Source of the DNA: Naegleria gruberi
Taxonomy: Eukaryota
Assembly (NCBI GenBank): GCA_000004985.1
Contig: GG738886.1
Strand: one strand, 5' to 3'
DNA length: 64,000 nt
Shown: positions 4,148 to 50,573 of the stretch, piece after piece
Numbering within the stretch: the stretch's first letter is position 1
Layout of the letters: each line of letters opens with the position of its first letter
Made by a program: the position numbers and the translations under genes
Notes under the pieces: generated by a model
The model's database searches: none
The model's input: only the letters and a program-made list of their open reading frames with translations
Told to the model about the DNA's origin: nothing

Positions 4148-5579
4148 ATGAAGATCAACAGCACCTCCTCTATCATCATTAATACTCACATCATGAAACA
4201 ACCAGAAGTTAATTTTGAGGAACAACCAGTTGTTCTTTCCTTGGATGTAACATTTTCAAGCCCATTACTTAAATCAACAATTGACAATCAAAGAAAGCTC
4301 CATGAGAATTGGTGTAAGGAGGCAGATCTATTCAGAAATGCCATTATCACTCCTTTGGAATATTGTGTCAGAGAAGAATCAAGATTTGGAAAACGAAAGC
4401 AAGAATATTCTCCTTATGTAATTAAAGGTCAAGAATTTATTTACATGAAAAAGTTAAAGAATCTTAGTGAGGACATGGAAGAATGCTCCACAACAAACGA
4501 ACGATACGATTCACCAGTGAGAGATGGTGTTGAACAATCCAAAAAGAAGAAACGTTTCTATTGTGAACAAGTTGATAGTTTGGAAGCCATTCCAATTGAA
4601 TTGAGAAACAGCAAAGAGTACATGATGGAACGTGTTAAGAAAAATGGTTTGTATCTTCATTATGCTCATCCTAGATTGCTGTTTGATCAAGAATTGTTAT
4701 TGGAAGCTATACGAAATAACGGAGATGCTTTCAAATATGTTCCATTTACATTTAGAAAAGATGAAGAATTCTTGAAAAGAGCTCTTGAATTGAATGGTGA
4801 TGCTTTTATGTTTCTTCATGGGGAGATGAGAAAGAGGAAAGATTTATTCGATTCTGCCATAATAACAAGTGGAAGAGCATTCGAACATGCAGACAATTCA
4901 ATAAGAACTGGTTATTTCAATGCAGTTCAAGCTGTGTCAAAGTACTGGAGCAATCTTTCACATTAGAGCATCTGTACCTTACTATTCTAATTTAATTAAT
5001 ATTATTCTCAGTTCTAATCAATTACAAGACTCTGAATTGGTTAATTCAAACTTGATCACCGATAGGTATGATGCATTGACATATCTTGACATTTCACACA
5101 AGGCATTTATTATGGCAACAAGAGAATGTAGGAATGATGAGGCAGTAATTATAAAGGCATTGAGAAAGAATTTAATCATTGCCAACTATCTCACTATTGA
5201 ACAATGGAATATTATCATTAACCATCCAATTATCGTGGAAATAGTTCGATTCCCAGCTCTAGAAATGAATCTTGATACAGCAACACTCATTCTTGAAAAT
5301 TCAACGTTGCTTGAGAATGTTAGAGCTCTTGTTAAAAGATATCCATCATTAACAAAAAGTTTAACCAATTTGGAAATGATATTTGATCCTTTCATATTGA
5401 GATATTTACCAAAAAGAGAACAATTTAGAATTCTCTTTGGTAAAGAAGAAAAATTCAAAAGTACTGCACAAGTTACAGACTTTGATATGAACTTGAATTT
5501 GCTGAAAGAGAGATTTGCAAAATCACATCCTGGATTAGTTATTCCTTTCCACAGATTTGGATTAATACAAAAAAAGTAA
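4148..5579 (+). CDS. DUF4116-like repeat protein (tandem ~35-aa repeats AL.YAS...LR.D.E.VL.AV..NG)
   Basis: Two overlapping ORFs (4148..4966 and 4920..5579) in different frames. They are joined either by a putative 25-nt intron (4942..4966, GTACTGG...ATTAG) or by a frameshift. Repeats such as NGLYLHYAHPRLLFDQELLLEAIRNNGDAFKYVP resemble the DUF4116 unit and are paralogous to the genes at 53058..54786 and 60668..62425. Confidence 0.55.
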
Positions 5580-8663: not shown

Positions 8664-10584
8664 TTATTGAATGAAACATTTCTTATTGGCATCATCCAAC
8701 TGGTTTTCTTCACCTTGTTTCACCCCATCATGATCAGTTGTTGCAACTGTGTTTGAAATGGTGTGACGAGGAGAAGGATTGGTTGTGTGGCCTTCGATAC
8801 TGACATTGTTGTTGGCCATCATTTGTGAAATTTCCTTCAAATTGTCCTCAGTTAAGCCAGCAGTGAGAGCTTTGGAATTTGCATAATATTTGGATTGTCT
8901 CTTGTCCTGGGATTGATTTACATTGATACGAAAATAGGGTGTTTCTTGATCTGCTTCTGCAAAACTCTTTTCAACCAGTTGTTTCATCTTTTCATCATCT
9001 TCTGATTCATTGATACTGCTTGTGGTTGATTCATCGTCCATAGATTGATTATTTTCCTTTTGATTAATGGTATGACCGTGAATGTGAGTGCCTGATTCCT
9101 CCTCTAGTTCATAATGATTCATATCATAGTGATGCTTATCCTCTTCACCAATATCCTCTTCATATTCATCGTGTTCACTCTCATTGGAAATTTCACTTTC
9201 TGTGAATTTTTCAAAATAGTCACGATCCTGAACTGTTGGTACGAATTTTGGAACCTCAATAATCCTCTGTTTAAATGCAACATTATAATCCTCTGCCAAA
9301 CTTTCACATGTTTCATGAGCTTCATCCAAAATTCCCTTCGGTGTCACTTGCACAACCTTAGCAAAAATAGTATTAATGACATCAGTGCACAATTCATCAA
9401 TTCCTTCACCTGTTGCAGCACTTACTTCCCTATAAATAATATTCTTTTCTTTTGCCATTTCAATTGCTTCCTCTCTGGAAACATCTCTCTTTGAATCGTT
9501 TGAACCATTGTTTTCCTTTCCTGAATCAGTACTTGATGAGGAAAGTGTTGAATTGTGTCCAAATCGAGTAGATCCATGATACTTTTGAAAATTATCACAC
9601 TTATTTGCAACTAGGAAAATTGGTAAATTAGGATTTCTCTTTCTAATCATTGGCAACCACTTGTTGATTGAATTGAAATAGGAACGTTTACTTCTCACAT
9701 TGAAAACAATAATAACACAATGTGTAAATGTTCCATACATTCTGCAAACTTTCACATATGTTCCAATATCAACAATATTCGAATCATAAATTTGTAATTG
9801 AATGGAATTGTTTGGTTCGTAGGTGTGTTGAATGAGTGATGAAAATTGGGACATTCCCTCCGTACTAATTAACTTTTTAATGTATTCCTTCTTGGGTGAT
9901 TGTCTAGTGAGTAATCTAAACATGACACTTGACTTTCCGACTATTGTGAAAATGTTGATGCTAAATATTATTCGAAAGTATAATGATAAACTTACCCTTC
10001 TTATCTCCCAAAATCATGACTTTAAATTGATAATTATGAATCAAAGGAGAAAAGTAACACGGATTATTATAAAGTGGAATATTAGATTCGTCCAAAGTTT
10101 CGTCCACTTTCTCTTCATTAGTGTCTTGTTGCTCTGAGAGTAATATTTGTTTCATATCCTTTTCAACATCATAATTTCTCTCAATACCTCTCCTCCAACG
10201 CCATCTCGAATATCTCGTCAATAGAAAGTACAATTCTTTCCATTCATACTTCTTCAATGATGGTACTGCAGCAACTGTTGGTGAAGAATTTAATGATGTT
10301 GGTGATGATTTATTCAATAGTGATGGAGATGATGAGAATGTTGCAACTGATGGTGATGATGGTGTGAATTGATGAGGAAGAAATTGAAGTTTTAATTCAC
10401 GTTCCAACAAGAGTTGCCACAAGTTGGAATCCTCCAATGCTTGATTCCACTCCTTTGAGATGGTGTAGCACTGTTTGAGAATGGTTTTTGTATCGAGGAA
10501 GAGCATAATGTTACGAAAGGATAGCAGTGGACCTGTATCGGCTCCTGATGTTATTGGAAAGAATGGAGTAGCGTCTCGAGGCAT
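8664..10584 (-). CDS. F-box + Rab/Ras-like small GTPase fusion protein; join(10584..9996,9940..8664)
   Basis: N-terminal F-box: LSFRNIMLFLDTKTILKQCYTISKEWNQALEDSNLWQ. A 55-nt GTAAGT..TAG intron (9941..9995) reconstitutes the P-loop ILGDKKVGKSS. Switch I is ISTEG, G4 is LVANKCD, and switch II is degenerate (LQIYDSNIVD in place of WDTAGQE). A long acidic/Ser-rich C-terminal tail follows. Confidence 0.65.
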
Positions 10585-19075: not shown

Positions 19076-19727
19076 TTATTCTTGTGGTTGTTGAGGAATA
19101 GAGACTTCATAATTCTTAATATCATCCATGGCTTGGTTTCTGTGATAATCCTTATCAATGTTTTCAGCCTTCAAGAACCTACAAAGCTTCTTATCCGTAA
19201 TACAAATGTGTGTAATCAACCAGTCAGACAAAAACATAAGAGCTTCCATCGCAAATCTAGAATTGTGAGTTTCTTCAACCTTTGATTTCAGGGAGAAGAT
19301 CTTTGAAATGAATTTTCTGTGAGTTTCCTTATGGTTGTCTTTAACGCTTGCTTCATAAGCAATACATCTGTCCATCAAGGACTCTTCTTCTTTAAAGTGG
19401 AAGTCAGTGTAGATAGCAAGTCTTTCAAAAACTTCCAGAATGAGGTCCATATCACCCATATTGATAGCGTGGTTAAGTTTGTTGATAAGGATGACTAAGA
19501 CTTTGTGTTGTTCGTCAATCATGTTAACTCCTAACTTGTATTCTTGATCACTCCAAGGAATAAGAACCTTGCCGGTAAGGAATTCGTCTAATAAAATGTT
19601 TAACAAGAATAAAAAGTAACTTCTACTTACCATCAGAGTGTGGTTGAGCACCTTTTCCTCCCTTATTCTTCTCTGTATCTTGGTCTGAAGATTGTTTATT
19701 ACCCATGCATGAAGCTGATCCGCCCAT
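19076..19727 (-). CDS. Hemerythrin-like protein with N-terminal myristoylation motif; join(19727..19631,19587..19076)
   Basis: Hemerythrin HHE metal-ligand pattern: IDEQHKVLV, HFKEEE, H..H..F and the spacing downstream. Exon 1 (MGGSASCMGNKQSSDQDTEKNKGGKGAQPHSD) is joined to exon 2 through a 43-nt GTAAGT..TAG intron (19588..19630). Confidence 0.7.
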
Positions 19728-20541
19728 TTTTATTATTGTTGTTTTGTTTCAAATTGTAGTTTTTTAATTTTAATTGAGAGAGAAAAACTACTGCCAACAT
19801 TTGTAACCGATTTTAGGCGGCAAACAAAATTCAACAATAAAACATAACGGCAGCCTGCATAAGTTAAGTTCCGTTATTGTGAACATTAAAGCGCGTTCAG
19901 GGCGTTTTACCTTTTTCTCCAAATAAGGCCATTTTTAGACCTGTTTTTAAGGTGGGATATTAAATATCTCCAGTGAATATCAGTAAGCTTGCCAGTTCGA
20001 GTAGCAGTATTATAATAGAATTTACAATTCATTAAGGAACTATCCAGTAAGTGTGGTTATTAATATTCGTTAAGTGATACAACTGTTAATTCACCAATGT
20101 TCAATATAATACATTGTTTGTGTCCAAACATCAAACTCTGTGGAAAACCAAAATTTGAGATCTATGTATAAGGAGCCAATAAATATCATACTCTGTGTTA
20201 AACAAAGCTAAACAATGAGTTGCTTTTTGGGTCTCCCTTAATTGGTAGGACCGATTTGCAAAAAAGGAGCTACATCAATTATAAACGTCTGATTGTTGAT
20301 GTCGTAACCTTAATATATTACTCAGTACATAGTGTAATGTTAGTGTTATTGCATTGTTGCATGAGGGAGTCGAGTTATCAATTTTGGTAGTTACGAGTTT
20401 TCTCCAAATGAAGGTTTCCTTATTTCTAAACAAGTTTTCGTCCACAACAAGTTGGAGAATTAGCTTGAATCCCATTTTAACTCAATTGAACGATAAGGCA
20501 ATCCAAGCAAAATGGTTCTGAAATGACTCTCTAATTAAACT

Positions 20542-21663
20542 TTAAATCTTTGTTTCTACCATAACCACTCTTTCATATCCAGACAAATCTTTAGCTGTTC
20601 CTAAGAATTGAAGACTTGATCTGCTATTGATAATTCTTTCTCTCAATGAATTAGCTTGGTCATAGCCAACCTCCATTACGCAATGACCATTCAGATTATA
20701 CTTGCTAGAGAGTACATTATCCACAAGTAGGTAATTGTAAAAATCAAATCCATCCAATCCTCCATCGAGTGCCATGTGTGGTTCGTGTGTTGAGACATCC
20801 TTATCAAGTTCATTTTGCACAACATTGGTTGGAATGTATGGAGGATTACTAATGATGAGATCCATCTCCAAATCCTTATGAATCCAATCATCATCTTTGA
20901 AAATGTCGTGCTGGATAAACTCTAATTCTTTCAAATCTTTTCCTGCCAATTCCATATATTTTGGAATGAGATTTTGTGCATTTAACGTGGCAACTTTTAA
21001 AGCTCCCTCACTCTTATCAATACCAAATGCCCTCACTTTTTGAAGGCCAATTTTTTCCAATTCCAATAAGAGAGTAATCAAGAGACAACCACTCCCAACT
21101 CCAATTTCCATAATTCTCAAAGGTCTATCAAGTTGAGACAAATTTGTCACACCGTTTCTTTTCAAAATGAGTGGAACAATTTGATTGAGTGTTGTTTCAA
21201 TTAATACTTCTGAATCAACTCTTGGAATTAAAACTCTTGAATCAACATTAAAATTCCTCCCAAAAAAGTCTACATTTCCAACAATATATTCCATTGGTTC
21301 ATAATTACATCTTCTCTTGATAAATTCCTGAAATTTTAAATACTCATCATTGGATACTTTTCGTTCTCGTTTTAATTGATTATATAATTCCATAGGTGTT
21401 CTTTTCAATGATGGACAAAGGGTGTGAAATAATAATTGGCGAGCTTCTCCCTCTGCATCATGTTCAATGTGTTTAAATTGAAGTGAGTTCCGAAGTTGAT
21501 TTTCTCCAAACTCCAAAGCACTTTTAACATTTACATTTGAAAGATTAGATTGATGATGGAAGTAGCGAAATGTCAAACTATTCCGAATATTTGTTAGTGG
21601 TGATGACATGGATTTAACTTGGTTGGCAATAGTGTGGTTACACCAATAAACAACTTGTTTCAT
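20542..21663 (-). CDS. HemK/PrmC-family N5-glutamine methyltransferase (MTQ1-like)
   Basis: Catalytic NPPY motif (LIISNPPYIP) and the SAM-binding region MEIGVGSGCLLITLL. The architecture matches release-factor glutamine methyltransferases. Confidence 0.75.
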   Translation of the reverse strand: MKQVVYWCNHTIANQVKSMSSPLTNIRNSLTFRYFHHQSNLSNVNVKSALEFGENQLRNSLQFKHIEHDAEGEARQLLFHTLCPSLKRTPMELYNQLKRERKVSNDEYLKFQEFIKRRCNYEPMEYIVGNVDFFGRNFNVDSRVLIPRVDSEVLIETTLNQIVPLILKRNGVTNLSQLDRPLRIMEIGVGSGCLLITLLLELEKIGLQKVRAFGIDKSEGALKVATLNAQNLIPKYMELAGKDLKELEFIQHDIFKDDDWIHKDLEMDLIISNPPYIPTNVVQNELDKDVSTHEPHMALDGGLDGFDFYNYLLVDNVLSSKYNLNGHCVMEVGYDQANSLRERIINSRSSLQFLGTAKDLSGYERVVMVETKI

Positions 21664-21751
21664 TTTTTTTATTTTACAATTTAATTGAGATTATCTATTC
21701 ACATGAAAGATGGCAAGTTGTAAATGTGCATTGGGACGGATAACAGGCCAA

Positions 21752-22777
21752 TTACTTTCTTTCACCAAACTTGGAGTGACCTGTCTTTTTGGCGTGAAGA
21801 GTAGCCTCTTTTTCTCCCTTAATAAATTCACCACATTGAAGACATTTCAGCGTGAAAGTGGCAGTGTCAGTAAATTGATGTTGATTGTGGAGTTGTTTTA
21901 CAAGTTCAAGGGCTTTTGTAGAGGAAATGTCATCATCTGCTGGCAGGATTGTAATGTCCAATTCTTCTGGACCTTGTGGAACTGGATTAATGGCCAATGC
22001 ATCATAGTGAATACCATCATAGAGGAGAAGAATTTTCCCCTTAATTAATGGATCTCCTTCGCCATAGACATCTCTTCTATTCGATGTCACATCAAAACTG
22101 TCCACACGAATATTGTAAAATTGAGACAAGATCATAATTTCCAAACTTCCACCCCAGCTATTATCTTTCATAATCCATTCACAGTAAGCCTTTGGACTTT
22201 GTCCCAAAATTGCTTCATTGAATTGGATAGGGTCGTTCAAAATCCAATCTCTAATGACTCTTCTCAATGCAGGAGCTCTCTTCTTTTTCCTTGATTCACA
22301 TCCTTCCAAACAATATGCAAATGCATTGAAAAGACAAGAATTGTCACTGTCTATTACTCTTTTGATAACAACACTCTCAGCAATAAGTGTCGAATCATCT
22401 GTTCCAACTGAATGTGGTCTTGGAGGCACATCAGAATATGATTCAGGCTTGATAATCTTGTAGCTTGATGGAGTTATATCATCATCTTCCACTACTATTG
22501 GTTGAGAATTATTTACAATAGAGGCATATTCACTAGTCTCCTCAACAATAAGTGATTCACCAGATTTTACTCCAATATCACTCAACTTTTTTGCATTGAA
22601 TTCCGATTGATTTTGTTGGCCAGCAATTTCTTGTGGAGGAAATCCCATCTTTAATTTTTGTTTTGATGGCTCGATTTTACTCTCTTTTTGTATTTGTTGT
22701 TTGAGCCAATCAACAGTGGAGGAAAAATCAACTCCTCTTAGGGCCATCTGAGAGGCTGGTAGTCTAATTCGAATCAT
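21752..22777 (-). CDS. OTU-domain deubiquitinase OTU1/YOD1-like (UBX-like N-terminus, OTU core, C-terminal C2H2 zinc finger)
   Basis: N-terminal ubiquitin-like fold MIRIRLPASQMALRGVDFSSTVDWLKQQIQ. OTU catalytic Cys box DNSCLFNAFAYCLEG. C-terminal C2H2 zinc finger CLQCGEFIKGEKEATLHAKKTGH. Confidence 0.8.
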   Translation of the reverse strand: MIRIRLPASQMALRGVDFSSTVDWLKQQIQKESKIEPSKQKLKMGFPPQEIAGQQNQSEFNAKKLSDIGVKSGESLIVEETSEYASIVNNSQPIVVEDDDITPSSYKIIKPESYSDVPPRPHSVGTDDSTLIAESVVIKRVIDSDNSCLFNAFAYCLEGCESRKKKRAPALRRVIRDWILNDPIQFNEAILGQSPKAYCEWIMKDNSWGGSLEIMILSQFYNIRVDSFDVTSNRRDVYGEGDPLIKGKILLLYDGIHYDALAINPVPQGPEELDITILPADDDISSTKALELVKQLHNQHQFTDTATFTLKCLQCGEFIKGEKEATLHAKKTGHSKFGERK

Positions 22778-22882
22778 TTTTTTGTGTTTTAAAAATAGAT
22801 GATAAATCCATAAAAAGTTGCTTCTTTACAAAATATTATTCAAATTAAAGATGAACATGTGACAATTGTTTTTGAATCCTAT

Positions 22883-23857
22883 TTATTGTTTTTTCTTTTT
22901 TAATCCAATTCGCAATTCAAAATCATCAATCTCTCTCATTTGTTTGTCTGGATTAAAGAGATCTGTTTTCCGATGTTGCTCATGAATTCTTTCAATCTTT
23001 CGTTGCTCCTTTTCTTCAGCCAAAATTTCCTTTTCAAATTCCTTGTGGTCATGTAAATTTCTCAACAGTTTGACTGTACTCTTGTGACTTGAGCTGTTAC
23101 TGAAAGTTGTGACAAAGGTGGAGCTTGTTTTTGTAGAGGACAGAGTTGCAGATTTGTTACCTAACCTCGAACTTTGTGGTCTTGAACTACTTGGACGAGG
23201 TATTGTGGATCTAGGGGTTGGGGGAATGCTCATTGAACTCTCTGATTTTGTAAAGGTGAGTCTGGCACTAGAGGAAGGTGTTGGTGATCTGGAGGTTGAG
23301 GTTGGTCTTGCATAGCTTGGAGTGCTGCTGTTTTGTTGAACTGGTCTACTTTCATTGTACAATTCTCTGGCACTCTCCAAACAATCGCTCAGGGAAAATG
23401 GATGTTCAGAGTATTGATCTGCCAGAGAGTAGGGATAGTGTTTGAAATTCTTCTTTTTAAGGTTCTGATAATTTCCAAACGACGAGTAATTAGGGGAGTA
23501 AAAACCAGCCTTCTTTTCTGCTGGAATGTGTGTTATCTTCTCTAGTTGATGTTTTCTATTGGCTGATAAGGTACCAAGGAATGCAGTAAATGTTTCAGCT
23601 TGTTGATTTGATGTTGCATAGAGTTTGGAGGGAGATACTGATTGAGGAACGTGTCTTGCTTGGGTCTTCTTATGGAAAACAGTGGGAGAGGAAGATAACA
23701 CCTGTTGATAGTTTTTAGAGATATTATCTTTGCATCCGCTGGAAATATCTGTTTTTTGTCTTAGATTTGTTGTTAAACTATAGTGATAGCCTTCGGAAGC
23801 AAAAGCACTCGATTCTACATTTCTATTGAAATGTCTTGGTGATTCTACGAGAGCCAT
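22883..23857 (-). CDS. Hypothetical Ser/Pro/Thr-rich protein with basic coiled-coil C-terminus
   Basis: A long ORF with a low-complexity S/T/P-rich middle and a KEFEKEILAEEKEQRKIERIHEQHRK C-terminus. No recognised domain. Confidence 0.3.
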   Translation of the reverse strand: MALVESPRHFNRNVESSAFASEGYHYSLTTNLRQKTDISSGCKDNISKNYQQVLSSSPTVFHKKTQARHVPQSVSPSKLYATSNQQAETFTAFLGTLSANRKHQLEKITHIPAEKKAGFYSPNYSSFGNYQNLKKKNFKHYPYSLADQYSEHPFSLSDCLESARELYNESRPVQQNSSTPSYARPTSTSRSPTPSSSARLTFTKSESSMSIPPTPRSTIPRPSSSRPQSSRLGNKSATLSSTKTSSTFVTTFSNSSSHKSTVKLLRNLHDHKEFEKEILAEEKEQRKIERIHEQHRKTDLFNPDKQMREIDDFELRIGLKKKKQ

Positions 23858-24594
23858 TATTTACACTATTTACAGAAGAATAAATTATTGAGGTTTTTTG
23901 AGCTATTAATTACTAGAAGCACACAGGATTACTATTGTTGCTGTTGCTATTCTTGTTGTTGATTCAGCGATTGGCCTTGATTTGTGTAACGGCTAGAGAT
24001 TGAACAATCTCTATGACAGAAGCTGACTGAAACAAAAGAGTTCCAGTGGTTTGGAGTTTAAGGTTTTTTTTTTGAAAGGCCTATTCGTTCAAGCCAACGT
24101 TCCTTTTGTTGCTTCTACAAGTACATTAACCAACTCTAACTGACATCAAGATTTCATTCTTATTTATTTGAAAAAAGTAACCTTAGAGGGAAATATGCTC
24201 CAAACAAATAGTGGGTTCATTTGTTCCAACATCATGTTTCGGAAATGTCACCCCTGGCATGTGTCAATACCATTATGTAATAATATTACTACAGTAACAA
24301 CTTCATCGACAGAGCTATATCTCTGAGAATTAATATTTGGAAACCAATAGAGTTTATTGAAGTTAGCAAATAATAATAACATTGCCTCTACGGCAGTGAC
24401 GAGAAATAATCAATCAAACTTGACAATGAATGCAGCAGTGACACAAAACCCATTATCCTCTTCAAATACTCCAACCATTGTAATTCCTAATAATAATAAT
24501 AATAATATCATACAACAACAGGATCAATCATGAAAATTTAAAGTTAATAATTTGAGGTAAAAACCTTATTAAAATTTTCCAACTCGCCACGTTA

Positions 24595-24665
24595 CCGTCT
24601 CGGGAGGAATCGAACCTCCGTCAATGGATTCAAAGTCCACTATGCTACCATTACACCACGAGACG
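24595..24665 (-). tRNA. tRNA-Gln (anticodon UUG)
   Basis: Reverse complement: CGTCTCG TG GTGTAATGGTAGCAT AG TGGA CTTTGAA TCCA TTGAC GGAGG TTCGATT CCTCC CGAGACG G. The acceptor stem is 7 bp, the D-loop is Gln-type GGTGTAATGG, the anticodon loop CUUUGAA gives UUG, and the T-loop is TTCGATT. Confidence 0.85.
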
Positions 24666-24962
24666 AGCACATTTAATAACCACTTGATTATACCATAGAT
24701 AAAGAATCAAAAATGTCACTCTCAAAATATTTTTAATTTGATATAGAGGAAAGGTACGGTTTACAATTTTAAAACTTGTTTTCCATTTTGATAAATTAAA
24801 AAATATTGAAAAAAAATAGGGGAGAAACTGTGAACTCTTTCTCGATAGATATTGTATTTGGGGTTGTGATTTTTCTACTGTATGTAGATATTAATGTCTA
24901 GTATTAATGGTAAATTTTTTTAAAAGTTAGTCTGGAAGAACACGAAGAAAAAAGATGATGTT

Positions 24963-24982
24963 TGCGTCGACCGGGAATTGAA
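24963..24982 (-). tRNA. Detached 3' portion of tRNA-Gly(GCC): T-loop, 3' T-stem, 3' acceptor strand and discriminator
   Basis: Reverse complement TTCAATT CCCGG TCGACGC A. This is the exact complement of the 5' acceptor strand GCGTCGA and the T-stem CCGGG of the 5' portion at 25445..25502. Confidence 0.7.
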
Positions 24983-24983
24983 C

Positions 24984-25444
24984 GGGTTATGGAATTACCT
25001 AATGTGGAAATTGAATTCAATTTTGAAATTGAATTAATACAATGTTTTTTAAATTATTATTATTTAAATGTATTTCACATTAATTTTGATAATGTAATAT
25101 TAAAGATATTGATGATTGGGTATAGGGGAACGGAATTTCCTAATTGGGAATGTCATCACACCAACAATAAATTAAATTTATTATTTATTCATTGATGTTC
25201 ACTAACACATTACATGATGAAACAATTCAAACATTTACTCAAACTTTAAACATTAACATTAACCATCGGGTAACGGATTTTAATACATGTACAGTATGTT
25301 TATAATTGGTCGACGCACAGAAATTTAAATAAAAAGAATTAACAATAATAAAAGCAAAATGCTCACAACATTGGAGAACGGGAAATGAAATTCCCAAATT
25401 AAATTGAGAAACAACACAATCACAATAATTCATACTATCAAAAT
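24984..25444. mobile_element. 461-bp AT-rich insertion splitting the tRNA-Gly gene within its T-loop, flanked by an 8-9 bp direct repeat (G)AATTGAAC
   Basis: (G)AATTGAAC occurs at 24975..24983 and again at 25444..25452. Removing 24984..25452 restores a perfect 71-nt tRNA-Gly. The insert has no long ORF and no clear terminal inverted repeats. It contains a palindrome AATTGAATTCAATT near its left end and an inverted copy of GGTCGACGCA at 25306..25315. Confidence 0.5.
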
Positions 25445-25502
25445 GAATTGAACCCGGGTCACGGCGATGGCAACGCCGTATTCTACCACTAAACCATCGA
25501 CG
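25445..25502 (-). tRNA. 5' portion (about positions 1-60) of tRNA-Gly (anticodon GCC), interrupted in the T-loop
   Basis: Reverse complement GCGTCGA TG GTTT AGTGGTA GAAT A CGGCG TTGCCAT CGCCG TGAC CCGGG TTCAATT. The anticodon stem is a perfect 5 bp, the loop gives anticodon GCC, and it closely matches eukaryotic tRNA-Gly-GCC. The 3' T-stem and acceptor strand are missing here and lie 461 bp away. Confidence 0.8.
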
Positions 25503-25612
25503 CTTCTTGAATCATTATTCAGGCTGTTTATTTTATTTAAGGTAACCCTGTTAGTAATCTCCCGCCATTTTTAGTTGTTTTCATCTACAGTCATGAAATT
25601 TAATTTAAAAAA

Positions 25613-26630
25613 ATGATGCAACAACACCAAGAATGTAATGCTCAATACAAGTCCATCAGTAGAAGTATCGAGCAAACAACAAATCAGGTGAATGTTCATT
25701 TGAGAAATTTGGATCGGCTGAAGAAGAAGATGGTCAGTGAGGAAAAGAAGAATGCCATTAATTTATTAAAAAGTATGAGAATTGAAACTGGTGGAGCAGA
25801 GATACCATTCAGTAAACCTCGGAAGAGAGGAATTACATCGAAATTTTCCAATGGGGTTGGATTAAAATCAGAAGACTTGGCTGATGAATATTTGGTTCCT
25901 TTAAAACAGAGATATCCTGAAACTGGGTGTAGGTTTTGAATATTGTTTTCTCTTGATGGAGATGAGTTTACACTTATATTGGAATTTAATCATATTGAAT
26001 TGTTTCAAACAATTGTTTGATAATGGTTTCAACGAGAATAGATGATTTTGAAGTGAAGGATATTGAAGATATCAAAGATTTCGATAAGGATTCTAAATAT
26101 TATGAACAAATGCATGAATTGATCCACTCTCCACGAAATACTATTCCTGATATAATAGATGAAAAGAAAAAGAGAAGAGAGGAGGAAGAACGTAAAAAGA
26201 AGGAGGAACAAGAAGAGGCTATGAGACTTGAACGCAAAAACAAACTCAAAACCAAGTTAATAGCCTCAAAGAAATTAATCATGCTCAGTTCATTATCTTT
26301 CAAACGAACTTCAAGGTAAGATTCTTTCTCAATCAATTCTTACAAACTCAATTCAGTCAACTTGAACACAAAGCACAAGAAAAACCAGTGGAAGAGGAAG
26401 ACGAATTTGAAAAAACAAGAGCCGAACTCTTTGGCTCAAAACCGAAAAAAGTTGAAACTCAAAAAACACCGCCTACAGAAAAGAAAGCCTCCTCACTCCT
26501 CAAAATGTTGGGTATTCCAGAAGGTGAGGATTCAAGAGATAGTAGTCCAACCAATGAAAAGAGTCAAAGAAAACCTCAAGTCTCATTCTCAGCCATGATG
26601 GAGAGAAGATATTCAAACAAGAAGATGTAG
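25613..26630 (+). CDS. Hypothetical Lys/Glu-rich protein, 3 exons approx join(25613..25926,26037..26315,26357..26630)
   Basis: Three same-strand ORFs linked by GT..AG introns (about 110 and 41 nt). The second, GTAAGA...TTCAG, gives ...FKRTS|QLEHKAQEKPVEEEDEFEK. Charged low-complexity protein with an RKRGITSKFSN motif. No family assigned. Confidence 0.4.
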
Positions 26631-27433: not shown

Positions 27434-30400
27434 TTATGGAATAGAGCCTTCTGAAAGGGAGAGGGTAGTGGATTCGACAGAAGCAGAGCTTGCAAAATTG
27501 TTACTATCGTAACTATTGGCATTAGCTTCCTTAGTTGTTTCAATACTAGTTGTTAATAATGGTTCTTTCTCATTAGGTTTGTCTTGATCTTGATCATCTT
27601 GTTTAACTAGTTCTTGAATATCTTCTTCAGATAATTCTTGAGCATACATTACAGCACCTTCCAAACAAGTTAAATAATAAACAACCTCACTGTTTCTTGA
27701 CTGTGAAGAATACTTTGATATATAAGAAAGAGCAGAATGAATATTTGGAAGATGAGCATGAACAACTACATAAACCAAGATTGGGAAGAATTCATCAGCT
27801 CCAAAAGAGAAATCTTTTCCTCTTTGAGAACAATTATCCTTAGCAATGATATGTATTTGTCTCGCACAAGAATACACACAATGAAGCATGTCAATTGGAG
27901 ACACACAATAATTCAAATACCCAAGAGTAGCAATAGGATCATAGAATGGAGTTTGATTTTGTTTGTGAATCATTTCCTTGATGCTATTCTGTTTTCCAGT
28001 AAACTTAGCTCTTATAGGTAAAAACTTGTTGGCAACACCAAGTTGATTAGCAGTAAGTTTTCTTAAGAGTCTGACTTGTTGTTGGAATTTGTAGTTTTCT
28101 TGAGATTGTGACTCAATTTCAATCTTTTGAAGTCTAAGTCCAAGGCCAAACTCATTGTAAATCAATCGAGAAACGAGTCTCAATATTGCTTGCTTTTCCA
28201 AGTCAGTTTTGATGGCATGTCTATCACTCAAGTAATCAACATAAATGACAACATATTCAGCAATTTCAGCTGGAGGGACCTTTTCAAGTCCTGCATTATT
28301 GATTTCCTTCAAGAATGTTCTGAGAGATTGACCTTCTTCTGTACGTTGATCAGCAATCAAATCAAAAAATTCTTGTTCAATTTCCAATCTTTGATCATTT
28401 TCAACACAATTGATGAAAGATTGCCAAGTTTGATCATCAAGATGAACGTCTTTTTGCATTGAATTTCCCTCATTGAGAGAATGGAAGTTGCACAATGGTA
28501 CAACAGGTTCTTCAATAAATCTTTGAATGATGGATTTCAACCTAATTGTCACCTCCTTCTTGGTGATAACCTTCTTATTAATGTTGCTATCCTTTTTCAT
28601 TTGAGTGTACCTTTCAGACAAATCCTTGGAAATTTGTTCTAAAAGAATAATTTCATTCCATTGGGAGGATAGTGATTCATGATCGCTCAAAATATCCTCC
28701 ACGTCCTTATAGAATGATTCATTCTTTACATAGTGAGGAAGTAAATTGTAACACTTCATATTGATATCACCTGCTTGCTCTACTTGTTTCAATTGTTGAG
28801 CTTGTTGTACAAGAATTTCGCGAATGATTTTAATTCTGTCCTTGATAAGAGTCTTGCAACCCTTTTCGAGTTCTCTTCTTTGCTTGAGTCTGATTAATTT
28901 ACAGCTGGATAATTCCTTAAATATTTCAATTAATTTAGAATCATGACATCTTTGCAAGAATGCATACTCTTGTTGCATCTTTTCATATTCAATCTCTTGT
29001 CTCTTTCTCAAATCTTTTACAACTTGTCTACTTTCCTTGAGGTAGTTGGAAAGTCTTTGGTCGTATTTAATCAATTCATCTCGCCAATCCTCTTCACTTC
29101 TCTTCTTTGGAGCAGATGTGAAAAGCTTTTTGAATAAATTTTCCTTCTTTGGTTGGAAATGTTTAAGTTCAGAATTGTTGGTAATGAAAGTATGTCTCTT
29201 TTGTCTGGTTGGAGAGCTTGGTTCCTTTTCCTGAAGAAGAGGTTGAGCAATAATTGGGGGAATTACAATCTTTTGAGCATTCTCTCTGAAAATGAAAGAA
29301 GTTGTCGATGTGTTTGGATCTACATAGGCTTTCTTGTCAAATGATTCAAACTCTGTATTGATTGTTGAATCCAAAAATCGTGATTGGTTAAAACTCTCTG
29401 ATATTACTCCTTCAGAAGGTTTGCTGAGAGCCTTATTGTTCTTCTTGATAGAGACAGGTGGAGATGATTTTTCTCTGTTTGTTGTAGATTTTTGTGGTGT
29501 GTTAGGTTCAGAAGAGGCACCAAGGAAGTACTTTTTCGATGAGTTATCCTCCTCCTTCTCTTGAATAAATTGTCTCATATGCTTTCTGATTTTCACATTC
29601 TTCTTGGCAGATAATCCATTCTCATCACTCTCTTCTTCATCAGATTCTTCAGTATCATCCTCTGAGAATTTTAAAAAGTATTGTCGTTTGGATTCATCCA
29701 TATTGGTGGTAATTTCTTCATCCCAATCTCTTCTCAATTCAGAGACCCATGAAGGAATATTATCGGCCACTTGTGGTAAAACTTGTTTAATAGTGTCAAT
29801 GTTCTTATTGGCACTGTCCTTCTTTTTCTTTGCATTGGGAATGAAATAGTTTACCTATGTTGTAAGAAAGTATGTTTGTTTAAAATTACTCACATTAATT
29901 ACAGTTTCAGGAGGTACGTCCTTTGTTTCTACAATTACTTCTTCATCTTCCTTCACTTTTTGATAATACTTTTTAATATTCTCTTCAAGAGAAGAGAAAT
30001 TATCTTGGTTGGAAAGGGCTGGAATTGATGAATTGTTATGAACTATTATTGGTTGTTGGAAAATGGATGATTCTTCCTCTTCTTCGTGAACTTGAGATGC
30101 GAGTAGAGACTCTCTATTATTGGAGGAAATATTGGAAATATTGGACGTTGTTCGTTGTTGTTGTTGTTGCTCTGAAGGGAGTTGGGATTTGTTGTTGGTA
30201 GTTATGGTAGGAGGTATGTTGGTAGATTCTTGTTGTTGTTGGGAAAGAGGAGTAGAATTTGTCTGTGATGATGGGGAAAGGATGAAAGAAGGAGATTGGA
30301 GTGGAAGTGAAGAGGTTAATTCATCCCTTGTTACGGATGATCCATCAGATGGAACAGAGCTATTTGGCATACTACTGGGAGTAATAGAAAGGGAGGCAGG

Positions 30401-44079: not shown

Positions 44080-47000
44080 TTATTCGTAAACCTCAGCAAA
44101 GATAGTGTTGGAACGACCAAATATTTCTGGTGAGTACATTTCTTCACATTTGGTTGGTGGAATAATGAAGGATCCGATTTGAGTGGCACGACACAAATGT
44201 TTGAAAGTGTGAGTTCCTTCCCAGAGCAAACTGGAGAATGCTTCAACACGTTCATCTCTACTATTGACATGTTCATACCATGGATAGTTCCACCAACATC
44301 TAGATTTCTTAACTTCACCTGAAGGAGCGTTACCTTTCAATTCAGGATTAATTGGTTCCAAACCAGCAGGTAAAAAGTCAACCAAAGCAACATGATAACG
44401 TCTACTGGTATTAGTGAATGTAATGATAACTCTAACCAATTCACCAGCTTTAAATTTCCAACAGTTTCTTGCCTTATCAAATTGAGCATGAGATGGATCA
44501 GTAACACCCTCATAGCTTCTCTCAATTTGGAATCCATAATCAAGAGCTGGTAATAATAAATTCTTAGGAGCATAGTCCATTCCAATTCTATAGTACAATC
44601 TACCAGGACCTTCCTTCAAGATGGCCAATGTTTGTGCACCTTCAGTGGTAGTAAGTTGTCTCATTGGAATAGTAAGAACATTTTCATCCTTATTTCTTCC
44701 CTTGAAAACTTGTTCTCCACAATAATCTTCTCCAAGCCACATCTTGGCAGTGAAATCAGGAGTGACACCTTCAAAGACATGGAAATAACTGTTGAGAGCA
44801 AGAAGGATGAAAACATTTTCTTGAGTATTGCCCCATCTTCCCTTCTTCTTATGAGCTAAAAGTCCCTTGACAACCTTTGGAATGAGATTATTTTGTGGTA
44901 CCATATGAATGAGCATTTCCAAACAAATTCCATCAGTTCTTCTATCACTGTGCAACATGATAAGCTTGCTGCTTTGCTCATCTCCATAGCTTGTAACAAA
45001 GTTGGCTGTTTGAGCAGTTTCATTGACTCTCATTAAAATATAATTCACAATTTCAGTCGATTTTGTTGTGGCTTCCTTTCCATTGGCAAAGAACATTGCT
45101 GAAGCAGTCCAAGACAAAGTTTCAAGACAAGTATCCTTCAATCCACATTCTGAATATAATTGGTCAGCTTTTTGTTTGGCTCTTGAATCTCCCAATAGGG
45201 CGGCAACATAATAAGCATATGATCTAATGGCATATTTTGATGAAGGAGAGTAATATGTATCACGAATATAATTCTCAATATCACAGAGGAAATTAGTGAG
45301 TTTGGAAACAACATTATTATTGAGAGAATAACCTGCAATCTTGGCTCTAGCAAAGGCATGACCTACGTGGCAAGAAAGGTAAGGACTGACTGAATAATCA
45401 CTTCTGTAAGTCCACCATCCGAATCCACCATTTGGAAATTGTCTTCCATTCAAAATACCCAACGATAATTGTACAGTAGAGTTAAGCATAATTGAGCTTG
45501 GAATATCCTTGACCTTGAATGCTTGAAGTACATCCTTGAGAGCAACAATTGATAAAATCTTACTTGACAATTGTTCACAACATTCAAAGGAATAGTTGTA
45601 AACATAAAGGAAGGCATCAGTCAAGGCAGACAATGCTGTACTACTGGTAGTGATTTGTAAGCCACCAAATTGAGGATAGATATTTTCTGGAGCCTTAACT
45701 GGTTGGAATGTAGTGCAATCACCATCCAATTCACCATAATGAGCAAATGCTTCTGTGGTTGCTGGTGTGAATACTCTGAGTTCCTTTTCAACAGCATCAG
45801 AAAAGTTGATCAATTCGGAAACAGAAACAGCAACTTGGAATTTAGAAATACCAACCTTGGTTGCTTGCATTGGGAATCTCAATTCAGCTCTCTTAAGAGC
45901 AGGGATTTTAACATTCAAACCTCTCTTGGATGGATCCAACAATTCGAGTCCATCATAGGCAACAGCAATATGAACATTCAAATCAATAAGGGTTTGATTT
46001 TGTAAAACACAAGCAAATTCTGCCTTATCACCAAAGTTCAAAAATCTTGGAAGGGAAGGTCTAATTGCTAGTGGCAATTGTGCAACAATTGAAGATTCTC
46101 CCAAGCCGTACAAACTATCTAGTTTGGTAGAAACAGCTGTAATTCTGTATCTCGTCAAATTGTCAGGTAATTTGAATGGCACTCTGGCCTTGCCTTGAGC
46201 ATCTGTTACACATACTGGACTAAAGACAGCAACTGGATTGAAATTCTTTCTGACAACAATGGCAGATCCAACTTCCTCACCTCCTTCACATCCACCAGCA
46301 TCGTCATTACATTCTTCGCACTCTTTTTCCTCACATCTCTTTTTGGATTTCTTACAACTTTTCCTTTCTTGCACTTCTTCTTGGCAATCACAATCATCAT
46401 AACAACAACAGGAACGACATAAACATCCTTCACACTTGCAACATTCACATTCATCATCATCACATTCTTCCTCATCAGAACTATCTTCAGGAGGAGATTG
46501 AATGTTGATATTATCAAAACTCTTGACAAATACGTGGTCTCTCAATGAGAACTCTGAGAAGCTTTGGCCAGTACCAACTATGAATGTGCTCAAAGGATTA
46601 GATATTCTATAGCCAGTCAATGAAAGAACAGCTTCATCAACAGCAACGAGACAAACCTCACTTCCAGCTTGTGGTTTAGAGTTTTCCTTGTCAGTTACCA
46701 AAACATCAACAAAGGTCTCAACACCTGGAGTAACAAATTGCTTCTCTGGAGTGACCAATACATCGAGTTGATGCACTTTGGATGAGACACCAATATAACA
46801 AGTTCCATTTGCGTACGCAGGTTGTTTTGGGAGGTCGAGAGGTAATCCAAGAGAATCACTTCTTGATTCACTACCTTGGAGCATTACACTAACTGTTACA
46901 TTTGGAATGTGTTCTTTGGTAATTTTGAGAGTGAATTCAGTTGATCCAACTTCTGGATCAATGGTGATTGGAATATTATCGATTACAGAATTGAGGCAAA

Positions 47001-50000
47001 CAGTAACAACACCATTAGCCTTACCGTCGAATGGAGATTGAATCAAAATTTTGGCTTCTTCTCCAATTTCATACATTCCTTTGTCTGCAACCAAGAGGGC
47101 TTGTTGCTTTGAAAGTCTTGAACCAACAACATCCTTCTTTGATTTACCACCAGTTACGTATAGGGAGTTATTTGAAGAGTTAGTTAAACCGGTTTCTGTA
47201 TCCTTAATTCTCAATGTGAACTTGTAGTTACCACCCTTATCGAAACTAATAGGATATTTGACTGGTTCAGATTCAGACTTGAATACCTTCTTGAAAACTT
47301 CAACAGATTCATGAACAACACTGAACCCCTTCTTCTTTTCAACGGTTGTTGTAGCAACCAGTTCCATATCAATACCAGGAATAGTATTACCTTCAAGATC
47401 AGTGGTAACCATGAATAAATTGGTTTGAACATTTGGTTTAACAAACATCTTTTCAATCTTCATTCCACAATAATATTTGCAAGGGTGAACAGTAAATGTA
47501 GTGGAATCATTAATAGTTTGACGATTAATATCTTGAACCGATGTTTCAACAGTAATGTTCATTGGAGATTTCTCTTGTCTTTCGGTTTCATCGAAGAGGA
47601 TTGCAATTTCATGTTCACCATCAGAATTACAAACACCTTCAAATGTAACTGGTTTGTAATTTTCACTTCCATAAGTATCATAACACCAATAACGATAAAA
47701 TGGATTTGAGATGTAAGTGGAGAAGTTGAAACCAGAAAAGTTTGGTGGGGTATAACTTGTCTTTGATTGTTTGATAACATAGGAACACTTTGAACCAGAG
47801 AGACCTCCACCTGAGTAGTATGCTGCTTGGGTCTTGAGAATTGTTAAGTTATTAACAATATATCTGCATGGTGGGACAGATGTTGAGACTGTAAATTCTG
47901 GAGTACGGAACTCTTGTACATTAAAGTTTGTATGCATTGTCCTACCGTTGAACTCAATGGAATGAGAGCCCAAGTTAACATTGTCTGGAATTGAAAACTT
48001 AATATCAAAGGAACCATGTTCTGAGATGGTGTATTTTCCAGTGTGATATTTTGCACCTCTAGAATCTTTAACAATGTATTCATAAGTTCCCTTTTTTGGT
48101 AGAGTTGGAATAGTTCTTGATCCGTACTTTTCAACCTTGAGTTCTCTACAAATACCCTTGATGAAAATCTCTTCTCCAGGTTTATAGAGTCCTCTATCGT
48201 TGAAAATATTATATGCTAATCTATCATCAATTCTGTAGTGATAAAGGTATAAATCTGGAATAAAGCAGGTATCATTCAAATAAGATCCAATCAGTGTATA
48301 TTCACTTCCGTTTGAGGTGTGACTAAGAACAGCAATTCCTGTTTCAGAGTCTGGTTTTGTGCTAAATGATGGAAGGAATTTCTTTTGTTTGAAACTAACA
48401 TCAGATTTGATGACAGTTCCATCAATTAAAGAATTGGCCCAACAGTAAACATTACCTGTTCGTGTATCGAAAAAGCCATCCATTGCCATCTTTGTCACCT
48501 GAATCCAGGAAATGTAAACTGGTCTGTATTTCCAATTATCTTTCCAATGTGTTTTGGATGGTTCAACTGCAACCAAAAGTTGACCTAACATGTCATTTGG
48601 ATGTTGTAAGTATTGGGTCAAGTCAATTTCTGTATCAACTGGTTCATCTGGTTGACCATTGGTATTTACCATAGTGTCAAGAACTTTTTTTCCAGAAAGA
48701 GATAATGTTGCATTGGAATAAGCATCATAGTAGAAAACATTGTTTGAATAATCACCTGGTTTAACTTGATAAACTTGGACATGGATAGCTTCAAGATTTA
48801 CACTGAATACGGAGAAGGATGGTTTAGTATTGACAGTAGGATCAATAACCATCATTCCGGTCTTGTAGGCTTGTAAAGATTGAGCTGCTGGTCCAACTTG
48901 GAAAGTAAAGTTATTTTCTCCTGCAAGTTTTTGTCCCCAAACATCTGTTATTTGACCAGAGAGTTGAACTTGGTATGTGGTACGTCCCTTAATATTACCA
49001 GATATTGTCAAGTAATTTCCAGATGGATTAATACGTAATCTTTCAATAGGTGGTTGAATACTTATATGTTCCTCATTTAATAATTCAATATCAATATTAT
49101 TACTAAATGTGAAAGAGAATGGTTCCAATGGAAGCTTTCCACCAGTATGGGAAGTAACTTTGAATTCTGGATAGTTTGTAGCTGTGAAGGAAATATCTTT
49201 TTCTGTTCTCAAAGGACCTTCAATAGATCTGGCTCCTTGCAATAATGTTATAGCGAGGGTTTCTGACAGGGCTACTCTCCTACTTGCTACATCAATTTCA
49301 ATCCAAACATGTCTATTTGGAGCAGAATTTTCCAATTTGTAATTTACAGAATTGTACAATGAGGATGATCTCTTTTCCAATGAAGATTCTTTAAGCTTTC
49401 CTTCAATATAACTCTTTACAACTGAAGTACGGCCATCATTTTGAACCAGCTTGCAAGAGTATCCAGGTATATTTACACTAGAAAAGATTTGGTTTGGATC
49501 AATATCTTGATCAAACTCCATATAAACAAATGGAAATTCGTTAATTGGAACTGCATGGTAACTATTTGGAAGATAGTTGAGCATTGTCAATCTAGGTGTT
49601 TCAAATTTAAAGGAAACATTCTTATCCAATACTCCTCCAACACTAGACTTGGTTTTTTCACAATCAATAGTGACTGTGTATTCCGTAGACATGTCAAATC
49701 TATAATTTGGTTCAAAGAATAAAGTCTTTGCACCCATCCATCTAAATCTACCACCATTCTTTGGGAATGGTTCAATTTTTACAAAAGAAAAATCTTGATC
49801 ATGAACATCTTCAACACCAGACACAGCAACCATTGGCTGAGAGAATGTGATGGAAATATGTGGCACTGATCGATCAACTGGACCTTCTGGCAAATATCTC
49901 ACCACTGCCAAACTTGATCCCAACAATGCTTCTTCTTCCTTTCTCACTTGTTCTGGTTTTTCCAATTTCTCTTCTGGTGGGAATGGAATTTCATTAACAT

Positions 50001-50334: not shown

Positions 50335-50573
50335 TTTCTCTCCTATTAAAATTAAATAAAAATTATAATTATCAATCAAAAGAATGTTGCTGTATTTTTT
50401 TTGATCTGTTGGGAGTTGGAGATCGGCACCTATTTTATGCCTGTTCGGATGAACTTGTGTGGATAAGGAGGCGAACAGGGAATCATTAAAAGGAAGAACA
50501 TAATGAGCATTTCAAGATGTAATAACTCTCATTGTGTGAATGGCACACTGAGAGTAATTGATGAACGAAAAAT

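Follow-up and report, generated by a model that had tools for sequence, protein, structure and literature searches.

A tRNA-Gly(GCC) gene of Naegleria gruberi split in its T-loop by a 461-bp insert within a 9-bp direct repeat: a probable insertion-disrupted pseudogene

Elements that insert within transfer RNA (tRNA) genes are known, among them Dada DNA transposons (PMC3706591) and the NeSL or LIN elements, which belong to the retrotransposons lacking long terminal repeats (non-LTR elements; PMC4640811). Dada elements are devoid of terminal inverted repeats, generate target duplications of 6-7 bp and carry subterminal repeats that are echoed in the target, with insertions into tRNA-Gly described in Perkinsus and medaka (PMC3706591, PMC8869645). 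Site-specific non-LTR elements found in tRNA genes are NeSL-1_TV (tRNA-Pro), LIN15_SM (tRNA-Arg) and LIN25_SM (tRNA-Glu) (PMC4640811). tRNA genes are also interrupted by introns, reported to span 11-129 nt in archaea and 6-133 nt in eukaryotes, the non-canonical introns of nucleomorphs being 3-24 nt long, and where one copy of a redundant eukaryotic tRNA gene holds a short insertion, that copy is generally taken as a pseudogene (PMC4090602). Here, a stretch of 64,000 nucleotides of the Naegleria gruberi contig GG738886.1 (assembly GCA_000004985.1; hereafter, the window) was analysed, in which a tRNA-Gly(GCC) gene on the minus strand is interrupted in its T-loop by a 461-bp insert with a perfect 9-mer at each junction. 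The locus very probably represents a formerly functional tRNA-Gly(GCC) gene inactivated by one insertion event, that is, an insertion-disrupted pseudogene. Such a pseudogene is ordinary in kind, and the identity of the inserted element is the sole part of the locus with potential for novelty.

The 5' part of the gene comprises the acceptor 5' strand, the D arm with the A box, the GCC anticodon arm, the 5' T-stem, the T-loop and C61, and it keeps 10 of the 11 bases of the B box, while the 3' part contains the T-loop, the 3' T-stem, the acceptor 3' strand and the discriminator A (Table 1). These halves, of 59 and 21 nt, lie on the same strand and in the correct order, overlap by the perfect 9-mer and show no substitution, either within themselves or in either copy of the 9-mer. 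The 12 bases of the 3' fragment past the 9-mer (CCGGTCGACGCA) supply precisely what the T-stem, acceptor stem and discriminator lack, the chance of such a completion within 600 bp being roughly 1e-4, and the last 10 nt of the tRNA (GGTCGACGCA) occur twice in 64 kb for an expectation of 0.00. Deletion of 24984..25453 (470 bp) yields a 71-nt tRNA that ARAGORN calls as tRNA-Gly(GCC). The initial annotation of this locus, made from the sequence alone, had already described a tRNA-Gly(GCC) split in its T-loop by a 461-bp insert, and this description is borne out by the sequence and by the identity of the repaired gene to an intact copy. Its boundaries needed slight adjustment: the 5' part indeed runs along the minus strand to 25445, starting however at 25503 and not at 25502, and the deletion proposed to restore the 71-nt tRNA, 24984..25452, leaves an extra G. 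The neighbouring tRNA-Gln was likewise correctly recognised as intact, its distance being 296 bp instead of the 280 bp first given.

Independent evidence is provided by the match to an uninterrupted gene. The repaired 71-mer is identical at 71/71 positions to a tRNA-Gly(GCC) on a Naegleria-like metagenome contig (L004), the single intact copy obtained when metagenome contigs were scanned with 22 nt of the tRNA 5' half. The L004 gene scores 66.9 bits against the Rfam tRNA family (RF00005), and the split copy, recognised at 25433-25504, scores 21.2 bits, under the 29-bit gathering score, and does not qualify as a functional gene. The sole differences between the two are the insert and one additional 9-mer. 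Since the identical gene exists uninterrupted on L004, the pre-insertion sequence is known. The locus displays part of what is generally asked of a transposable-element insertion, namely a target duplication flanking the insert and a known sequence for the empty site, and the earlier claim of an insertion into a once-intact gene with a direct repeat concurs with the perfect 9-mer at both junctions and with the L004 gene. The split gene is confirmed as a real observation, far beyond chance.

Table 1. Positions in the window of the split tRNA-Gly(GCC) gene, its insert and associated sequence features.
Feature	Position	Strand	Details
tRNA-Gly(GCC) 5' part, nt 1-59	25445..25503	-	Sequence GCGTCGATGGTTTAGTGGTAGAATACGGCGTTGCCATCGCCGTGACCCGGGTTCAATTC, ending GTTCAATTC
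tRNA-Gly(GCC) 3' part, 21 nt	24963..24983	-	Sequence GTTCAATTCCCGGTCGACGCA, starting GTTCAATTC
Insert, 461 bp	24984..25444	.	Between the two tRNA-Gly(GCC) halves
9-bp direct repeat GTTCAATTC, left copy	25445..25453	-	tRNA positions 53-61
9-bp direct repeat GTTCAATTC, right copy	24975..24983	-	
Subterminal direct repeat, copy A (TCAATTTAATTTGGGAATTTCATTTCCCGTTC)	25376..25407	-	37 nt inside the insert 5' end
Copy B of the 23-nt motif TTAGGNAATTYCRTNNCCCGTTC	25121..25143	-	Weaker, internal
Subterminal direct repeat, copy C	24980..25014	-	Insert 3' end; last 4 nt (GTTC) overlap the right 9-mer
Palindrome AATTGAATTCAATT	25009..25022	.	
Inverted copy of the last 10 tRNA nt (GGTCGACGCA)	25308..25317	+	Inside the insert
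T4 run	25440..25443	-	First of the four T runs in the insert, 2 nt from the junction in tRNA sense
Further sense-direction T runs in the insert	25356-25359 (T4), 25350-25353 (T4), 25331-25335 (T5)	-	
T6 run	24948..24953	-	Original RNA polymerase III terminator, 9 nt past the tRNA 3' end
tRNA-Gln(TTG), intact	24594..24666	-	68.8 bits; 296 bp downstream of the split tRNA-Gly, same strand

Some further observations concern the two copies of this gene. ARAGORN reports a full-length 72-nt 'tRNA-Gly' at 25433-25504 (-), built from the 5' 59 nt plus insert sequence, which forces insert bases (CATTTTGATAGTATG) into the T-stem and acceptor; this 'intact gene' is a false call that annotation pipelines could propagate, and the locus should be labelled as a disrupted tRNA-Gly pseudogene. 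On the metagenome contig (L004 47-277), a tRNA-Ile(AAT) precedes the intact tRNA-Gly(GCC) by 87 bp, both genes being on one strand. A CAAGAA motif found directly upstream of tRNA-Gly(GCC) is common to the L004 and window copies and may be a conserved upstream element of such tRNA genes. In a scan of prokaryotic genomes, the 21-nt 3' end GTTCAATTCCCGGTCGACGCA was found exactly in six archaeal genomes (metagenome-assembled, contigs L005-L010), always in archaeal tRNAs; these matches presumably reflect convergent or conserved T-arm and acceptor sequence, with no bearing on the split gene.

The position of the insert within the T-arm is highly symmetric. The DNA of the T-arm forms an inverted repeat (CCGGG/CCCGG) with a 7-bp spacer, and the duplicated 9-mer, made up of the seven bases of the T-loop and the G53:C61 pair that closes it, is centred exactly on the dyad of this repeat. 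A 9-bp pattern of this kind is expected when a symmetric staggered cut is filled in by gap repair. We infer a mechanism in which an element-encoded or otherwise site-acting nuclease or transposase would cut with a 9-bp stagger, symmetrically about the T-arm dyad (CCGG-G TTCAATT C-CCGG), severing one strand between tRNA positions 52/53 and the other between 61/62, as a dimer could do. The 461 bp of AT-rich non-coding DNA would be joined in at the staggered cut, gap repair would duplicate positions 53-61, and the insertion would leave the T-arm and the 3' acceptor strand cut off from the rest of the gene. A polymerase III transcript starting from the split copy would then be terminated by the T4 run located 2 nt into the insert and would in no case extend past the T5 run at 110 nt, and presumably no tRNA is made from the split copy. 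Such a loss would be tolerated because tRNA genes are highly redundant in N. gruberi, for which 924 of them are reported (PMC2888827). Considering that (i) both halves are unmutated, (ii) so are the two 9-mers, and (iii) the T6 terminator is still in place, the insertion appears to have hit a working gene, and the event is probably not old but fairly recent.

Regarding the insert itself, it was described in the initial annotation as AT-rich, non-coding and without obvious terminal inverted repeats, and all three attributes hold. Its GC content is 25.4%, against 26-27.5% in the flanking spacers, no open reading frame (ORF) longer than 77 aa is found in it, and no Rfam family was detected within it at E up to 10 when positions 24000-26500 were scanned. 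Its ends read ATTTTGATAG... and ...CCATAACCC. Internally, a 23-nt motif (TTAGGNAATTYCRTNNCCCGTTC) is present in three direct copies that occur nowhere else in the 64 kb, and the outer two, A and C, extend to a 35-nt repeat with a score of 27, compared with a shuffle mean of 15.8 (standard deviation 2.0, maximum 22). The T-loop heptamer also recurs in the last 50 nt of the insert, as TTCAATT twice and as its complement once. These TTCAATT/AATTGAA copies lie partly within the palindrome, the third one being 18 nt away, and three copies of TTCAATT are reached by just 0.6% of other 461-nt windows. The 14-bp palindrome that had been noticed as an echo of the target is recovered as such. On the contrary, the inverted copy of the acceptor-derived 10-mer, although present and rare as a word, is of doubtful significance: the local alignment of insert and tRNA scores 20, with a shuffle mean of 16 and a maximum of 26-30, and since the alignment is no better than those of shuffled sequences, this feature carries little weight.

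Altogether, an as yet unclassified, non-autonomous mobile element that lacks terminal inverted repeats is the most likely identity of the insert. Several results weigh against this reading, and they concern both the structure of the insert and its distribution. No terminal inverted repeats are found for any assumed duplication of 2-9 bp, the best ungapped end-to-end match being 13/24, and the sole subterminal candidate is an AT-rich 7-mer, with TCAATTT 38 nt and AAATTGA 34 nt from the ends. Neither end shows a poly(A), A-rich or simple-repeat tail on either strand. The extent of the duplication may also be questioned, as copy C of the subterminal repeat shares its final GTTC (4 nt) with the right 9-mer and CCCGTTC is likewise the end of copy A, and the true duplication might be one of 5 bp (AATTC) accompanied by a 4-nt element-target microhomology (GTTC). 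Of these two possibilities, a 9-bp duplication centred on the dyad is the more likely, a preference that refers to a single copy. None of the superfamilies with 9-bp duplications, Mutator and Merlin, is positively supported. A second copy of the insert was not found in the 64-kb window by blastn (word size 9), the only matches being AT-rich low-complexity sequence, and the dispersed transposon family for which a BLAST comparison had been suggested is accordingly not demonstrated. A six-frame chimeric protein query of the insert, a weak test, gave nothing at E up to 0.01 in a database of 5.8 billion proteins, and exact insert-junction patterns were absent from viral contigs, a result of little weight. 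The absence of a second copy is a weak negative, covering 64 kb of genome, one protein database and viral contigs, and the mobility of the insert is presumed.

Comparison with related contigs adds a further point on the same side, since no orthologous empty site occurs in the Naegleria contigs compared, synteny being lost at the tRNAs on both sides. The N. lovaniensis contig L001 is collinear from VPS9 via DnaJ to a 108-aa ORF, yet without tRNA-Gly or tRNA-Gln, and an ENA metagenome contig (L011) is collinear on the other side (19103-23851), also without the tRNAs. Contigs L002, L003 and L012 were too short or had no tRNAs for an empty-site comparison. The pair formed by tRNA-Gln and the split tRNA-Gly (24594-25503) sits at a break in gene order, with collinearity reaching 25631 on one side and 23851 on the other. 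In N. lovaniensis, a tRNA-Phe(GAA) is located between the VPS9 and DnaJ genes (L001 13348-13420, -), and in N. gruberi only 16 bp, devoid of any tRNA, separate the ends of the corresponding ORFs (27418, 27434). The presence of this tRNA-Phe in N. lovaniensis and its absence from N. gruberi indicate that tRNA gene positions turn over fast between Naegleria species. Nothing specific was found in the literature on Naegleria tRNA introns or transposons.

A special case of insertion would be that the insert comes from a family that targets the T-loop/B box of tRNA genes and recognises it via the TTCAATT motifs near its own end, in the manner of Dada transposons or of site-specific retroelements of the NeSL/R2 type, whose habitat is multicopy small-RNA genes; this is a tentative idea that we consider unlikely. 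It is attractive in that the insertion is exactly centred on the T-arm dyad, three TTCAATT/AATTGAA copies fall within its final 50 nt, the target TTCAATTCCC has a near-copy (TTCAATTTCC) 36 nt ahead of the junction, and the subterminal repeat ends in CCCGTTC, merging into the target sequence. The absence of terminal inverted repeats is a feature of Dada elements as well, whose subterminal repeats also occur in their target, and tRNA genes, with 924 copies, would be an abundant safe target (PMC2888827). Nevertheless, a single observation is at hand, and one insertion cannot show specificity. The enrichment of the motif (P about 0.003-0.006) was a post hoc observation, the insert ends are linked by no exact inverted repeat of more than 7 nt, neither the 9-bp duplication nor the T-loop position is that of Dada, and the published Dada survey has no Naegleria entry. 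It is, to a similar degree, doubtful that the insert exemplifies an undescribed Heterolobosea family of short elements that lack terminal inverted repeats and home to the tRNA T-loop/B box by way of TTCAATT motifs at their end that mimic the target, with a 9-bp cut on the T-arm dyad.

Alternatively, the insert might not be a transposable element at all but a one-off piece of non-mobile DNA, either filler captured at the repair of a staggered break or a fragment of organellar DNA or of the ribosomal DNA plasmid. Its composition equals that of ordinary N. gruberi intergenic DNA, it has neither terminal inverted repeats nor a tail, and no other copy was found in the 64-kb window or the protein database, all of which would suit such an origin. 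However, a clean 9-bp duplication centred on a palindromic target is what staggered cutting by an enzyme characteristically leaves, unlike random breakage, and the insert possesses a subterminal repeat architecture of its own and no similarity to the rest of the 64-kb window. Moreover, a fragment of the gene-dense mitochondrial genome would be expected to bring an ORF or a ribosomal RNA match, neither of which is present. This origin is quite improbable.

The insert could also be regarded as a very long non-canonical intron in the T-loop of a still functional gene, with a bulge-helix-bulge-like motif at which the tRNA splicing endonuclease would excise it. Introns with bulge-helix-bulge motifs occur at T-arm positions in Cyanidioschyzon merolae, in cryptophyte and chlorarachniophyte nucleomorphs and in Crenarchaeota, and non-canonical T-arm introns do exist in some eukaryotes (PMC4090602). 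As in those systems, a symmetric motif whose cleavage would restore the tRNA can formally be drawn at this locus, consisting of the T-stem (5 bp), a bulge UUC, a helix AAUU:AAUU (4 bp) and a second bulge UUC; if the two bulges were cut at equivalent positions, the exact mature T-loop would result, and both exons are free of mutations. Known tRNA introns reach, however, about 130 nt at most (PMC4090602), and the 461-nt insert is 3.5x longer than any of those reported. The four T runs (T4, T4, T4 and T5) all fall within the first 115 nt of its sense strand, the first of them 2 nt past the junction. In five Naegleria-type tRNA genes, the first downstream T run is T4 to T6, which indicates that these genes terminate at such runs and that a polymerase III transcript should not cross the insert.

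Predicted folds are also unfavourable to splicing. Energies of -108.9 kcal/mol with the central helix enforced, -110.3 for the cloverleaf alone and -115.0 without constraints imply a penalty of 1.4 kcal/mol for imposing the 4-bp A-U helix instead of keeping it unpaired. The motif is missing from the minimum-energy fold, in which CGGGUU of the 5' T-stem strand pairs with AACCCG of the insert end, and no inner helix h' is found beside the 3' bulge. Furthermore, the target duplication accounts for all 9 repeated bases, whereas a bulge-helix-bulge needs only about 4, the same tRNA exists uninterrupted on L004, and short insertions in lone copies of redundant tRNA genes are usually taken as pseudogenes (PMC4090602). 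The view of the initial annotation that this is not a normal intron is therefore upheld by its length, its T runs and the instability of the motif, and splicing of the insert is highly improbable. Mature tRNA-Gly reads, once proposed as a discriminating test, are not diagnostic for splicing of the split copy because they are indistinguishable from the products of identical intact gene copies. Were it spliced, the insert would exceed every known tRNA intron in length by a wide margin and would represent the first non-canonical tRNA intron in Discoba. Candidate group I and group II introns were rejected, with no covariance-model match at E up to 10 (24000-26500) or at E up to 5 (whole window). 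Finally, an assembly artefact joining unrelated reads inside a tRNA gene is hardly credible, in view of precise junctions with the same 9-mer at each, halves that fit together base for base, on one strand and in the correct order, and flanking genes that are collinear with related Naegleria contigs on each side.

The disrupted gene lies in an otherwise ordinary genomic environment. The window has a GC content of 31-38% and is densely populated with ordinary eukaryotic genes, including WDR3/Utp12, OTU1, DnaJ, Hsp70, Sec1 and Ras. The ORF at 27434-29770 (-) is 100% identical to an N. gruberi VPS9-domain protein, that at 22883-23857 is identical to an N. gruberi predicted protein, and no transposase, integrase or reverse transcriptase was identified among the window ORFs. 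Apart from the tRNA locus, a 2099-aa ORF at 44080-50379 (-) displays a bacterial-type alpha-2-macroglobulin domain set (bMG10, A2M_BRD, A2M, MG2, Big_5) in a eukaryotic chromosome and was possibly acquired from bacteria. DUF4116 repeats appear in four ORFs (4148-4966, 53058-54305, 60668-61348 and 61415-62425), which look like a locally expanded gene family. Two overlapping, sub-threshold matches to C/D-box small RNAs (sR5 and sR1; E 0.4-0.6, 21-22 bits) at 10299-10377 (+), inside or adjoining the region of the Sec1-family ORF, are probably due to chance.

Returning to the insert as a probable mobile element, several element classes were considered and set aside on its own features. Solo LTR is rejected as the TG...CA ends are absent, and Helitron as there is no A|TC...CTRR|T junction. 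A tRNA-derived short interspersed element (SINE) finds no tRNA-like match inside the insert, a mitochondrial fragment finds no open frame or ribosomal RNA match, and a C/D box small nucleolar RNA is represented only by a SNORD49 match at E = 1 with no D box. Non-LTR retrotransposons and SINEs in general were rejected as well, with no tail, no six-frame protein similarity and no tRNA, 7SL or 5S match inside the insert.

Among DNA transposons with duplications of comparable size, those of Mutator measure 9-11 bp (typically 9 bp) and those of Merlin 8-9 bp, and short non-coding derivatives are common for both Merlin and Mutator-like elements, the latter including elements without terminal inverted repeats (non-TIR MULE). 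The perfect 9-bp direct repeat at the insert falls within these lengths, and to this extent the Mutator- or Merlin-like assignment put forward in the initial annotation fits; the insert differs from both in lacking terminal inverted repeats at any choice of boundaries as well as a transposase, and the length of the duplication is all that the assignment draws on. The site-specific non-LTR elements of the NeSL and LIN type resemble the insert in their location inside a tRNA gene and in their lack of terminal inverted repeats, and non-coding, 5'-truncated copies of a few hundred bp are usual for them. Unlike these, the insert shows no reverse transcriptase or endonuclease remnant in any frame, and neither of its ends carries an A-rich or simple-repeat 3' tail. 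In prokaryotes, integrative elements with the tRNA T-loop as attachment site are kilobases long, encode an integrase and bring a copy of the tRNA 3' end, so that the gene stays intact. They share with this locus an insertion point in the T-loop region and a short identical core at both junctions; here, on the contrary, the gene is broken and the insert is non-coding.

Dada elements offer the closest resemblance in several respects, since they also reside inside multicopy small-RNA genes including tRNA-Gly, lack terminal inverted repeats, are flanked by short duplications and bear short subterminal repeats that echo the target, as hinted in the insert. Internally deleted derivatives of Dada are moreover known to occupy the same site. 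The differences are equally clear. Dada duplications are of 6-7 bp, in comparison with 9 bp at the insert (or 5 bp if GTTC belongs to the element), and Dada targets in tRNA genes are nt 8-13 (A box) or the anticodon stem, in comparison with nt 53-61 (T-loop, B box). Typical Dada elements have equidistant subterminal inverted repeats, while the insert has only a 7-mer, its TTCAATT copies clustering at one end. A Dada-type DDE transposase is not in the insert, and no Naegleria family is among those surveyed. The insert fits Dada neither in duplication length nor in target position. If many copies were present at the same T-loop position, the few known elements that survive by residing in multicopy RNA genes would gain a third target region (the B box) and a new duplication length, and such copies might help to explain the unusually large number of tRNA genes in N. 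gruberi. A T-loop-specific family, if true, would combine a target region and a duplication length unlike those of every described element that targets tRNA genes.

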